In this document: piece by piece, positions 3,268-63,264 of the stretch
Numbering within the stretch: the first letter of the stretch is position 1
Layout: every line of letters starts with the position of its first letter
Assembly (NCBI GenBank): GCA_951406725.2
Contig: OX597826.1
Location: 83,762,001 to 83,826,000 of the forward strand
Direction: 5' to 3'
Origin: Octopus vulgaris
Lineage: Eukaryota
DNA length: 64,000 bases
Notes under the pieces: generated by a model
What the model saw: the letters and a program-made list of their open reading frames with translations, nothing else
Databases searched by the model: none
What the model was told of the DNA's origin: nothing
Program-made: the position numbers and the translations under genes

Positions 3268-3468
3268 GTAGGTCCCGGGTTGATTCGGGGTTAACCACAG
3301 TAAGTAAGGTACTCAATACATAGCAGAGTAAAATTAATTTATTATATAGAAGGAGCTTCTACAGGACTAGTACTGTTTCATTCAAGAGAAATCTTCAGGA
3401 AGCTTCCTGAAGATTTCTCTTGAATGAAACAGTACTAGTCCTGTAGAAGCTCCTTCTATATAATAAAT
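3268..3468 (-). mobile_element. Penelope-like non-autonomous insertion: 132-bp perfect palindrome plus 3' extension, inside (TA)n
   Basis: 3337-3402 is the exact reverse complement of 3403-3468. About 69 extra bp (3268-3336) lie on one arm only. (TA)n on both flanks. Contains a hammerhead core. Confidence 0.75.
3401..3451 (+). ncRNA. Minimal type-I hammerhead ribozyme motif (identical copy on the minus strand at 3354-3404)
   Basis: agcttc-CTGAAGA-tttc(tctt)gaat-GAAAcag-tactagtc-ctgTA-gaagct. 6-bp stem I, 3-bp stem II, 4-bp stem III. Predicted cleavage after GUA at 3445. Confidence 0.75.
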
Positions 3469-3484
3469 ATATATATATATACAA

Positions 3485-3645
3485 TGGGCTTCTTTCGGTT
3501 TCCGTCTGCCAAATCCATTCACAAGGCTTTGGTCAGTCCGAGGCTATAGTAGAAGACACTTGCCCAAGGTGCCATGCAGTGGGTCTGATCTCAGAACCAT
3601 GTGGTTGGTAAGCAAGCTACTTACCACACAGCCAATCCTTCGCCT
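3485..3645 (-). mobile_element. tRNA-derived SINE (CORE-like), 5' half
   Basis: Minus strand has an A-box-like tggctgtgtgg, a degenerate B box and CORE-like ccttgggcaagtgtctt. Same family as 12140, 29116 and 34140. Confidence 0.8.
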
Positions 3646-5519
3646 ATGTGAGTAAATTTCATTTGAAGCCTCTATGTAGTTGTTTGATCAGCCTGTAATA
3701 GCAGCCAAATATCCTTTAAATCACACCATGCCATCTTAGAAAGGAAAGAACATGTTGAATGGTTTGGTCTGTTTAGGCAAAGCTGACCCTGGGTTAAACA
3801 ACAACAGCATGAACATTGTAGTTGTGGCTAATTAGAAGAAGTATTGATACTGCTGATCCTGAGGGCATGAGTTCAAATGTGTGCCAGGTGTTCTATTGTG
3901 TTTCTGGGCAGAACATTTTATTCTACATGACCCCAGACCTTACCACTTGGTCACCTGATAGAATCTGATAATGCAGCCCAGAAAGAAGCTGATGACTTAT
4001 CCAGGAAACTATCTCAAACGTTTGCTTAATGCCAAGAAATCTAATCTTAGAACTGCCCTTTAAAATCTTATTTAAAGCTTAGGTGTGTGTGTGAGAGAGA
4101 GAGAGAGAGAGTGAGGTGGGGGAGAAAAAGAACAGATAAATTCTTCCCCCAAGTGGACTTCCTCAAACACAAACCTTGATGTAAAAAATTTTTTTTTAAA
4201 TGTGGATGAGATTTCTTTGATTATATTTCTACTTAATGAAGGTTAATTTGTGTCTAAGCAACATCTACAACCACTCTGATACCCTCCCCCAAAACTTCAT
4301 CTTTCAGTCACCAAAACCTAATCTGTAGAAGATAAAAGAACTTTCTGATAAATGGTCAACCCCTCCAGAATCCTGTCCTTGTCCATATTTTTCTGGCAGT
4401 TATCATCCTGCAATTGTTCAAAAACAATGACCAATGCATCAACACCATCTGTCAGGAGGGGAGGGCCTGTGAGGGCCTGTGAGGGCCTGTGAGAGTCTGT
4501 GAGGCCCATGGAAACATTGTTGTTGTTATTGTTAATACAACAATGGAATAACAAATATGTTAATACCTGATGAAGGGATTATGTTAGCTTTAAACTCTGA
4601 GATCAAGCTGTACCATAGATTAACTTCATCTTCCATATCCATGGAATTAGCAATAAAGAGAGAGAGAGAGAGAGAGAGAGAGATAGAGAGAGAAGGGGAG
4701 AGGGAGAAAATTGATCCCAGTATTTGACACTTTATCAATTCCAGAAAAGCAAAGGCAAATTAAAACTTGGTGTGACTTGAACTCAGAATGCAGAGACTTG
4801 GATCAAGTAAAAGCTCAACTTATAACACCCTCCACCCACCCCCACCGCCCCACTTTCTCTATCAGAATTAATCTTTAAGATAATGATTATTTCCCACAAT
4901 ACAAACGTAAGTGTCCTTATATTAAAAATCATTTGGCTCGTTACATGAAGTCTGTTAGCACCGAATGAAGTAATGCCATTGATTCTCAATACCTGTTTGA
5001 TATCTTTGACACTGTCCCCAGACAGGAAGTGATCAATCAGAGAGACTTACTTCTGGTCTTAGACTCTCACAAGAAGGAAAAAATATATATATATAAAATA
5101 GGAAACATAAAAGAATAAAATAAAAACAAGTCAGTGCAGCAACCAAAACATGTTGGTGGTCTCAGACAGGATCGCCCCCCCCCCCACCGCCATCTCCTTC
5201 TGCTTGTTCTGGAAGAAAGAATTACATTAAAGGGGCAGAATATTCAAAAATACAAAGCCTAGGGAAGAAGAAGAACCACAACTACAATGACAATAACATC
5301 ACCATGGTGATGAGGATGGTGACTGGTGGGCATGAGAGAGATACAACAATAACAGCAACAACAACAACAAAGTGGCTGATGTCTTTTTCTTGGAGGTGGT
5401 GGGGCTGGTGGTGGGAAAGGGTCTTTTGACAGATTTTCTTCTGAACCAGATTTCAAAATAGAAAGAGAGGGGTGGGGGGAGAAGATGTAGCTTTCATCAT
5501 CATCATCATCAACTAGAAG

Positions 5520-5703
5520 AATGGTTAGGACGCTGGGCAAAATGCTTAGCAGTATTTCTGAGTTCAAATTCCGCTGAGATTGGCTTTACCTTTCATCCTT
5601 TCGGGGTCGATTAAATAAGTACCAGTTATGCATTGGGGACGATGTAATCGACTTAATCCTTTTGTCTGTCCTTGTTTAGTCCCCTGTGGGCAATAAAGAA
5701 ATA
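5520..5703 (+). mobile_element. tRNA-derived SINE with Meta/MESC-like central domain
   Basis: gagttcaaattcc B box, central cctttcatcctttcggggtcgat...aagtaccag, tail cccctgtgggcaataaagaaata. Domain name is from recollection. Confidence 0.8.
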
Positions 5704-60533: not shown

Positions 60534-60802
60534 AGTTGTGATACCTGTTCCGGTGGCACGTAAAAAGCACCATCTGAACGTGGCCGATGCCAGCGCTGCC
60601 TTGACTGGCTTCTGTGCCAGTGGCACGTAAAAAGGACCCACTACACTCACGGAGTGGTTGGTGTTAGGAAGGGCATCCAGCTGTAGAAACACTGCCAGAT
60701 CAGACTGTAGCCTGGTGCAGCCTCCTGGCTTCCCAGAGCTCGGTCGAACCGTCCAACCCGTGCTAGCACAGAAAACGGACGTTGAACGATGATGATGATG
60801 AT
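60534..60802 (+). mobile_element. RTE LINE 3' UTR fragment
   Basis: ggtggcacgtaaaaagcacc...ggaagggcatccagctg...aacggacgttgaacgatgatgat. Confidence 0.8.
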
Positions 60803-62516
60803 ACACACACACATGCACAGATATAGATATATATGAAGCATGATTAATTCATGATCAGAGTTGTTCAAAAAACCGAGGTTCCACTATATATATATATATA
60901 TATATATATAGAAAGACAGAGAGAGAGACAGATAGACAGAAAGAATTACAAATGTAACTTTAGTCAGAGTAAGTTAGAAATCCTATCAAATTTCAAGATA
61001 GTTTTACAATAGAATATAAATGGTTTGTGGCAAGACATTTCAAGATGAAATGATATTCCAAAGAAATTTTAATGTCTAAAAGTCACATGAAGAATATAAA
61101 TATTGGATCACTTTATAGATAATAGTACGGAATGGACTGCATTTATCTCCAAATATAGAACTGATGCTTTGACTGACATTCACACTGTTCACCTTCAACC
61201 AACACTCTTTACCTTCAAATCACACACACACACACACACACACACACACACACACACACACACATCCAGACTCACATAGTTTTGAAATTGAAATTTTTCA
61301 TCATTTTATGAGAAAACAATTTTTAGAAAAACAAAAACACCCAGCAAAGGAACTGGAGACAAAGCAAAAAGAAATAATAAATTGTGCTAGGAAAGGTCAA
61401 CTTTGCAAGTGGCTTTAGTTGGAGAAGTAATTTACTGAGTGGATGCTTAGAAATCATGGTGGAAAATGTGAAAACTTGTGGAACCACCTGAATCTATGTG
61501 CAAAAAAAATGAAAGAAAGCTGAAATTTTTGATTTTAAAGCAAATGTCAGATTATGCACAAGCTTTGCAAGACAGTATATCTTAAAAGTTTGGTAGAGGA
61601 CAAAGTGAACATAAGACCTACAAGATTACATTTACTTAGTACTATGTGTGTTTTGATGCATATATTGGACAATTATTGGTAGTACTAGTGTGTAATTTTA
61701 CTTATTTTTGTCCTTTATTCCTTTAAGAAATCATTTGGAGTTTTGCTACTAGTAGAATATTAAATTGTACCTTGACTGGAGAAAATGTTTGCCAACATAA
61801 TATGGCAGTCGTGGTTTAGGACGAATGTTGCTGCAATTTAGACCTAGGAGACATCGTCTCCAGCTGGCTATACGACATGATCTGTATCCTTATATTTTCA
61901 AACAAGGGAATCTAGCACCTTGACTGTCATCCCCTTACAAATAACATTCATACTAATAATTGAGCCCTTATAATTTAGCCTTTCAAATTTTACATAAACA
62001 TATGCAGTTTCATTGTTTTACAGATTTGAATCATTACACCGTAGCCATGCAGGGGCATTGGTTTCAAGGGTTTAGCAAACCATATCAATTCCTGTACTTA
62101 ATTCAGTCCCTTTATCAAACTGCCAACTTATGTGACCAAGCGATGCAACACAAACACATTACACATACAGATTTTGCGCATGGTATTTGGTCTACCAAAA
62201 GCTAGATATTCCTAAGGGGCCAAATAATGAGATCAAAGTTGGAATCACATTGTTTCAAAGTGAATTTCTCAACAACACAGCTATGCCTGCTGCATACACC
62301 TAAATATATTATATGGGGGGGCGGTGAAGTGGGGGAAGAGACGAAGAACAGACTCAGAAGCCATAAACAATTGTTCAAACAAAATGATACTTGTGAAGAT
62401 ATCTCTCTCTTTCTCTCCCTCTCTCTCTCTCTTCACACACTGCCACCAAACGATAGTTCCACTTTCTTCTAGAACCTCCCAACATTCCCTAACTTTCTAT
62501 TTTCAGTAATCACAAC

Positions 62517-63052
62517 TATTTACATATATACATATACACATATATACATATATACATACACATACACATATACATATACATACATGTATATACATATACA
62601 TTCATGTATATACATATATATACATATACATACATGTATATACATATATATACATATACATACATGTATATACATATATATATACACATATACATATACA
62701 TACATGTATATACATATACATTCATGTATATACATATACATACATGTATATACATATATATACATATACATACATATACATACATGTATATACATATATA
62801 TACATATACATACATATACATACATGTATATACATATATATACATATACATACATATATATACACATACACACATGTATATACATATACATAAATGTATA
62901 TACATATATATACATATACATAGATACATATACATACATGCACATACATATACACACATATATATATATATATATATATATATATATATATATATATACA
63001 TGCACATACATATACACACACACACATATACACACACACACACATATATATA
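62517..63052. repeat. Compound AT/AC minisatellite with a recurring ~30-bp unit (tacatgtatatacatatatatacatataca)
   Basis: Read directly. Confidence 0.9.
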
Positions 63053-63264
63053 CTTTATTTAAAGCAGCAGAAAATTCAACAAAACCTGTTACTCTGAGTT
63101 TCCCGTTGCTAGCAAGCAAAAACTGTCCGATGAACGGCAACAGGAAACTCAGAGTAACAGGTTTTGTTGAATTTTCTGCTGCTTTAAATAAAGCATATTA
63201 CTCTACCACTGGTATTTGAGTACTCTTTTTTCCACCTTGTTTCACATTTATGTGTTTACTCTGG
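63053..63264 (+). mobile_element. Penelope-like non-autonomous insertion: 57-bp inverted repeat, hammerhead motif and 71-nt 3' extension, inside (TA)n
   Basis: 63053-63109 pairs with 63137-63193 (1 mismatch). Core ctgt-CCGATGA-acggcaacag-GAAActc-a-gagTA-acag at 63123-63160. Confidence 0.72.

Follow-up and report, generated by a model that had tools for sequence, protein, structure and literature searches.

A 64-kb window of the Octopus vulgaris genome (the whole stretch of 64,000 nucleotides analyzed here; assembly GCA_951406725.2, contig OX597826.1, positions 83,762,001 to 83,826,000, lying 373 kb from the contig end) contains five hairpin-shaped loci that belong to four unrelated families, referred to below as A, B, C (present twice), and D. 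These loci are very probably 5'-truncated insertions made by the machinery of Penelope-like elements (PLEs), with A and D belonging to the Hydra clade, C to the Penelope/Poseidon type, and B having been moved in trans. This attribution is carried by links to open reading frames (ORFs) in A, C, and D, by two fixed 3' ends in each family, by the association of one long with one short arm, and by flanks consisting of (TA)n or of target-site duplications (TSDs). A first-pass annotation, made from the sequence of the window, had proposed that four families with largely unrelated sequences share one architecture, including an inverted arm and an extension on one side; coordinates and arm comparison confirm both the loci and their common layout. 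The extension, called the tail below, is found on one side only and measures 69 nt in A, about 100 nt in B, 34 nt in C, and 71 nt in D. The features are as follows (window positions, strand):

3268..3336, minus strand: tail of A, 69 nt, lying between the two 3' end points and forming the 5' leader of the following tandem unit
3337..3404, minus strand: long arm of A, with a Hydra-type hammerhead at 3354-3404
3401..3468, plus strand: short inverted arm of A, with a hammerhead at 3401-3451; the arms overlap at the AGCT junction (3401-3404), and (TA)n lies on both sides
6740..6916, minus strand: inverted short-end arm of B, without hammerhead, the reverse complement of 7081-7264
6917..7264, plus strand: main arm of B, with a hammerhead-like motif at 7021-7079 (core U3/C4/A8)
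7265..7365, plus strand: tail of B, about 100 nt, followed by (TA)n
13141..13179, minus strand: inverted short-end arm of C copy 1, 39 nt
13183..13257, plus strand: tRNA-Arg-like head of C copy 1, with A and B boxes, then (AAT)n
13328..13371, plus strand: minimal hammerhead of C copy 1, with one core mismatch
13429..13462, plus strand: tail of C copy 1, 34 nt, which in a tandem donor encodes N-terminal ORF residues
15590..15602, plus strand: left TSD of C copy 2, 13-14 bp
15604..15920, minus strand: long arm of C copy 2, with tRNA-like head, (AAT)n, an intact minimal hammerhead (15694-15737), and the tail (15604-15636)
15923..16162, plus strand: short arm of C copy 2, with tRNA-like head and a hammerhead with one core mismatch (16064-16107)
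16163..16175, plus strand: right TSD of C copy 2
63053..63109, minus strand: inverted short-end arm of D, with the junction at CTAG (63109-63112)
63110..63193, plus strand: main arm of D, with a Hydra-type hammerhead-like motif (63119-63165), U4C core, stem II broken in the window copy
63194..63264, plus strand: tail of D, 71 nt, followed by (TA)n

Locus A is a perfect 132-nt palindrome (3337-3468) carrying a full hammerhead on each strand, while the second copy of C is made of two full arms placed head to head, with their motifs on opposite strands. PLE coding sequence had been reported as absent from the window, and tblastn searches of it with the A and C proteins indeed gave one weak match only (E 0.004, 57147-57362). 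This RT-like match (RT, reverse transcriptase) is probably an old retroelement fragment.

Longer copies elsewhere in the genome bear out the earlier proposal that the loci are PLE termini or non-autonomous derivatives, as the 5' extensions of A, C, and D reach PLE coding sequence and B is a non-coding tandem. Linking the families to a PLE ORF by 5' extension thus succeeded in part, with RT and GIY-YIG recovered for A and C, an endonuclease only for D, and none for B. Long copies of A carry an RT followed by a GIY-YIG endonuclease (EN) in one ORF, upstream of the terminal repeat. For example, locus L235 holds an open RT-EN stretch of 680 aa, and L044 is a tandem in which the ORF lies between two pseudo-long terminal repeats (pLTRs), with a unit of 5.2 kb whose tail continues into the 5' leader and the ORF; a partial-tandem pLTR is also found in L239. 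The A protein shows RWR (for RWK), DKT, CxCX5C, CxxC, and CxH motifs and, in the translation read by eye, no CCHH. RWK, DKT, the CxCX5C linker, CxxC, and CxH are Hydra-clade diagnostics according to section 11 of PMC8557442. The neighbors of this protein in the ESM Atlas are mostly unnamed, with GIY-YIG and RVT_1 clusters further down. The 3' untranslated region (UTR) of A, ~3 kb long, is rich in microsatellites, including (TA)n/(CA)n (L035, L044), and the element therefore carries its own target sequence. Among 20 long A loci, 17 combine a long with a short end (the other three being complex), and out of 50 A motif matches, the 32 with an adjacent inverted arm (22 distinct insertions) all pair a long arm with a short one.

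A frameshift between RT and endonuclease is common to 82 of the 100 A copies listed, and was rejected as a feature of the element: it is taken to be an assembly homopolymer error, the extra base being present in the short-read contigs of all four independent runs. At L044 position 4138, one base is systematically lost from a C run in the assembly as compared with short-read contigs, so the integrity of repeat ORFs is underestimated in this assembly. Further PLE ORFs of other types were also seen (L032 4452-6750, L216, L227, L045, and L037), one of which lies within family A microsatellites and stays open for about 770 aa.

In family C, long copies encode an RT (RVT_1, E 6e-8) followed by GIY-YIG, the ORF ending about 30 nt before the tRNA-like head (L249). 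The endonuclease is a C-terminal GIY-YIG, apparently of the CCHH type and with no Zn-finger linker, as judged from translations by eye and not from a tree. The reading frame is already open ahead of the hammerhead and continues across the tail, and L249 also has a partial-tandem pLTR. Long and short ends are associated in 15 of 20 partner pairs, and duplicated flanks accompany 6 of 15 insertions, as compared with 2 of 210 control pairs. In 3 of 30 C loci (L121, L122, and L129), the (AAT)n is interrupted by a LINE (long interspersed element) that has a restriction-like endonuclease and an (AAT)n tail; this LINE was considered as a partner of C and rejected, as a nested insertion in these three copies. 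We take this LINE to be Dong/R4-like.

Family D has 15 short and 15 long ends among 30 matches, 71 nt apart, with TA after all of them. Arms pair long with short in 19 of the 30 matches, and neither long with long nor short with short was seen. The sequence shared between copies reaches 1.2 kb upstream into an endonuclease (L225/L203), 1.1 kb from the motif, which is 36% identical to that of A over 100 aa (E 5e-14). The hammerhead frame of D, like that of A, matches Hydra entries in the PMC8557442 supplement, where the 4-bp stem III and the stem II base mismatch found in both families are listed for Hydra PLEs. The D core is CCGAYGA (U4C) in 24 of the 27 matches that retain a core, out of 30 examined; U4C is a weak natural viroid hammerhead variant that is reported to lower activity (PMC3088659).

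Family B is a non-coding unit of ~550 nt, with tandem spacings of 540, 551, and 575 nt (L091, L255, and L084, respectively), a longest stop-free stretch of 75 aa, and one type-I hammerhead per unit. It may be called retrozyme-like on these structural grounds. Thirty matches gave 14 short, 8 long, and 8 other ends, and clean long and short pairs make up six of nine inverted partners. All 22 cores that could be parsed have U3, 15 have A at position 8, and 8 have C at position 4, with eight matches remaining unparsed; a U3-A8 core variant is described for metazoan PLE hammerheads (PMC4209133). Four of 30 B loci have fragments of a Hydra endonuclease nearby, which were considered and found to be unlinked to B. 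There is, in addition, a second B-like tandem family, with a period of about 560 nt, about 70% alike to the B end segment, and a canonical CUGAUGA core (L080 1-1400, L087), a fragment of which rides inside the 3' UTR of A (L035 4160-4390).

Nevertheless, several observations weigh against the attribution of all five loci to PLEs of these clades. No RT was recovered for D in six upstream fetches, no ORF could be linked to B in 34 loci, and Pfam found no family in the A protein. The suggested placement of A and D in the Hydra clade is drawn from motifs, not from an RT phylogeny. Lastly, the C pairs include two short with short, one long with long, and two unclassified cases out of 20.

The earlier claim of a hammerhead-like core in each family is confirmed, for A, B, and C also by a relaxed type-I descriptor. 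This descriptor gave four matches in the window, all within the named loci (A twice, B, and C), while the comparison with shuffled sequence proposed at that stage gave a mean of 0.08 and a maximum of 1 match over 60 shuffles of the window; the hammerhead matches are not due to chance. A stricter type-I descriptor matched the three C motifs and three unrelated places. The window copy of D, with its hammerhead-like motif, fails both descriptors, since its core has C at position 4 and its stem II is broken. Two of the three C motifs in the window have one core mismatch, and stem I is kept in all four motifs, by four different sequences. Rfam gave no hammerhead among the matches listed for the window (150 of 172), and listed neither a hammerhead nor a tRNA family in scans of family C stretches.

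Genome copies were located by exact motif patterns, with reversed patterns as a control. Such counts refer to arms, not insertions, and are lower bounds, as diverged copies are missed. Family A has 8177 matches, comprising 2060 with the ACTAGT loop and 6117 with an allele keeping only CTAG, so that the loop of the window copy is the minority allele; D has 4226, C 4458, and B 97 matches, and each reversed motif has 0 in the same 2.8-Gb genome. The figure of five insertions per 64 kb, from which the first-pass annotation extrapolated, overstates genome abundance, because the window is a dense spot, with 6 exact matches observed vs 0.39 expected from the genome mean (about 15-fold denser). C matches are also denser near the start of contig C1 (at least 28 in 5.1 Mb vs an average of 1.6 per Mb), in line with subtelomeric enrichment.

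How these insertions arose can be approached from their ends. An inverted copy, a tail on one side, and insertion into microsatellites are all usual in PLEs (PMC8557442, PMC3846280). The GIY-YIG endonuclease would cut both strands, reverse transcription would be primed at two internal RNA sites, the distance between which would be the tail, and the two cDNAs would then be joined head to head. Two internal RT start sites separated by the tail length, and an uncleaved template, have been demonstrated in vitro for a Poseidon PLE (PMC11167929). The template RNA of the octopus insertions was likewise uncleaved, because the arms contain the sequence on either side of the cleavage site.

The commonest tiny copies require, in addition, an explanation for their sharply fixed inner junction. 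In A, 666 insertions have one identical 24-nt junction, 23 of 66 arm pairs are spaced 66-70 bp and only 1 is spaced 71-75 (from the first 100 matches listed per loop allele), and 21 of 50 arms start at -25 to -23. A TATAAAT box lies 29 nt upstream of this junction, with its spacing kept in the L265 subfamily despite an otherwise different spacer. One reading, to which we give slightly less than an even chance, is that priming takes place at the 5' end of the mRNA, and that both cDNAs terminate by run-off at the transcription start, after which they anneal via a short palindrome; the run-off end point would then be a transcription start just 5' of the hammerhead. Not all of the evidence favors this run-off. 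Only A has a clear TATA box where one would be expected: the D hot spot (11 of 30 arms, at -34 to -31) is without one, and C has only TATAAG, at -34. The hot spots of A and D both sit on AG, a possible splice acceptor. The two arms of an insertion agree in core allele at 49 of 50 listed junctions, and in 9 of 17 long insertions an arm is most similar to its own partner (five of which have one arm shorter than the stretch compared). Such concordance fits one donor and, equally, fold-back copying or later conversion.

The inverted arm could also be produced by self-priming, i.e., by folding back at a short palindrome on the antisense template or the first cDNA, in which case the hot spot would be nothing but the palindrome. 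This explanation, proposed for Adineta PLEs (PMC3846280), accounts for the palindromic hot spots (AGCT, CTAG, and GCCC-AC-GGGC) and for the nearly constant concordance of the arms, and is judged possible, though on the unlikely side. The neighboring 4-bp palindromes of A, at -31 and -39, take only one arm each, and arms end at -25 even with non-palindromic partners (L010, L262, and L275). Moreover, fold-back alone does not account for the position at which the second arm ends, i.e., the other of the two fixed 3' sites.

For family C, the short copies might instead form a SINE-like (short interspersed element) sub-element, with RNA polymerase III (Pol III) starting at the tRNA-derived head in the pLTR and the PLE protein inserting the short RNAs. 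Over its full length, the 75-nt head can be aligned with a genomic tRNA-Arg(TCG) (z 8.2), the best of 30 tRNA loci, which are a biased subset of the tRNAs of the genome; its A and B boxes are intact, and the C unit has no run of four T. Furthermore, 23 of 30 copies picked by the head end within about 8 nt of its start, and the other 7 extend well upstream, while only 4 of 30 copies picked just upstream of the head end in the next 30 nt. Among 30 matches picked by the hammerhead, 17 stop short of the head, 1 ends inside it, 10 end at its start, and 2 go beyond (one row of this tally was reassigned by eye). However, in copies with an ORF the head lies within the 3' UTR, its place is shared by a palindrome and a TATA-like word, Rfam made no tRNA call on the head, and nothing shows short copies acting as donors. 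ARAGORN found no tRNA in the window and, with a lowered threshold, called the head at the right place in 3 of 30 copies. Given that long ORF-bearing copies carry the head within the PLE, C as an independent SINE was downgraded, and the SINE-like reading as a whole is regarded as unlikely.

The inner boundary in A and D could also be fixed by splicing, if a 3' splice site lay where helix I of the hammerhead has its 5' end and left a processed RNA end that halts the cDNA. It would agree with the pyrimidine-AG at both hot spots and with Penelope of D. virilis, whose intron ends at helix I (PMC4209133). This is nevertheless improbable, as the 19 junctions inspected show no constant upstream exon, no joints occur in the contigs of four runs, and the putative branch motif is lost in the L265 subfamily, in which the TATA box is kept. 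Finally, inverted arms, TA flanks, and the homopolymer errors of the assembly could suggest miniature inverted-repeat transposable elements (MITEs), other DNA-transposon derivatives, or fold-back assembly chimeras. This reading is refuted by the ORF links and by independent short-read contigs, in which both ends and the junction recur unchanged. It is also at odds with the TSDs, with arms of 39 nt to 2.8 kb that differ by a fixed tail and continue into RT/GIY-YIG ORFs, and with the absence, in all four families, of symmetric terminal inverted repeats of fixed length, the feature by which MITEs had been proposed to be recognized.

Run-off at the transcription start can be extended to a joint proposal, held with low confidence, in which the stubs would record in the genome the transposition reaction at the mRNA 5' end, map PLE promoters from DNA alone, and replace antisense self-priming, the start in C would be a captured tRNA-Arg Pol III promoter that makes C a SINE-like element driven by the PLE, and B would prove structurally that variant-core retrozymes integrate by the two-site mechanism of PLEs. 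If true, run-off would answer how inverted structures form, left open in Craig et al. 2021 and Arkhipova et al. 2013. The stubs themselves are most likely inert, and inactive as ribozymes, because their motifs lie on opposite strands and the read-through RNA would fold into a long hairpin; for the D stub, the predicted fold reaches -99.5 kcal/mol (z -14.9). Read-through of a stub would form a long double-stranded RNA burying the ribozyme, which could feed RNA editing or small-RNA silencing. Altogether, at least four more PLE-related families are described, one of which is young and probably intact, with more than 17,000 exact motif matches (arms, a lower bound), each seeding DNA and RNA hairpins.

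Three other features of the window complete the picture. A MITE-like element at 7797-8019, with symmetric ~27-bp terminal inverted repeats in a TA context, contrasts with the asymmetric PLE stubs and is presumably Tc1/mariner-like. A common repeat occurs as two copies in opposite orientation (34542-34756 and 36038-36254), 84% alike and 1.3 kb apart, and is no PLE stub. An assembly gap of 100 N lies at about 22834-22933.

The architecture, the (TA)n targeting, and the Hydra hammerhead form are already published (Craig 2021, Arkhipova 2013, Cervera 2014, Frangieh 2024), and the loci do not constitute a new system. Families A-D may already be annotated, since repeat databases (Repbase/Dfam) and most subscription papers lay outside the literature searches; within their scope, these searches gave no account of a PLE-mobilized tRNA-headed element, of cephalopod hammerheads, or of a transcription-start model. 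What the data add is the sharply fixed inner junction, the tRNA-like head in C, and the variant cores in B and D.

Among known systems, the Hydra-clade PLEs, including Hydra-1_Obim of Octopus bimaculoides (Craig et al. 2021, PMC8557442), share with A the RT and linker motifs, the C-terminal GIY-YIG, the (TA)n target, and the 4-bp stem III, and with D the hammerhead form and a related endonuclease; A and D also have their inverted copy and one-sided tail. The Hydra-1_Obim hammerhead sequence given there differs from both. Hydra PLEs are usually <3 kb (a typical, not a defining trait) with tails of 30-40 nt, whereas A is 5.2 kb long and the A and D tails are 69-71 nt, and D differs by its family-wide U4C core. 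Family C resembles PAc of Anolis (Frangieh et al. 2024, PMC11167929) and Adineta Penelope (Arkhipova et al. 2013, PMC3846280) in its RT followed by a CCHH GIY-YIG, inverted pLTR, hammerhead overlapping the ORF start, 34-nt coding tail, TSDs of 9-14 bp, and palindrome at the inverted junction. Unlike these elements, as described in the two sources, it has a tRNA-Arg-like A/B-box head and (AAT)n in the pLTR, at the truncation hot spot. Metazoan PLE minimal hammerheads (Cervera and de la Pena 2014, PMC4209133) are alike in their palindromic short helix III, in an additional base that precedes stem II, in pairs on opposite strands at distances of 100-700 bp, and in many single truncated copies; U3-A8 is common to these and to B, which adds C4 in 8 of 22 cores. 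Family B is also comparable to non-LTR retrozymes (PMC7229834; bioRxiv 10.64898/2026.07.22.740005) as a non-coding tandem with one type-I hammerhead per unit, but differs from those reported there by its ~550-nt unit, variant core, and full PLE integration signature (two ends, tail, inverted arm, and TA target). Schistosome hammerhead SINEs, as reviewed in PMC6765202, combine, like C, a Pol III-type head with a hammerhead, whereas the head of C is physically located within an ORF-bearing PLE.

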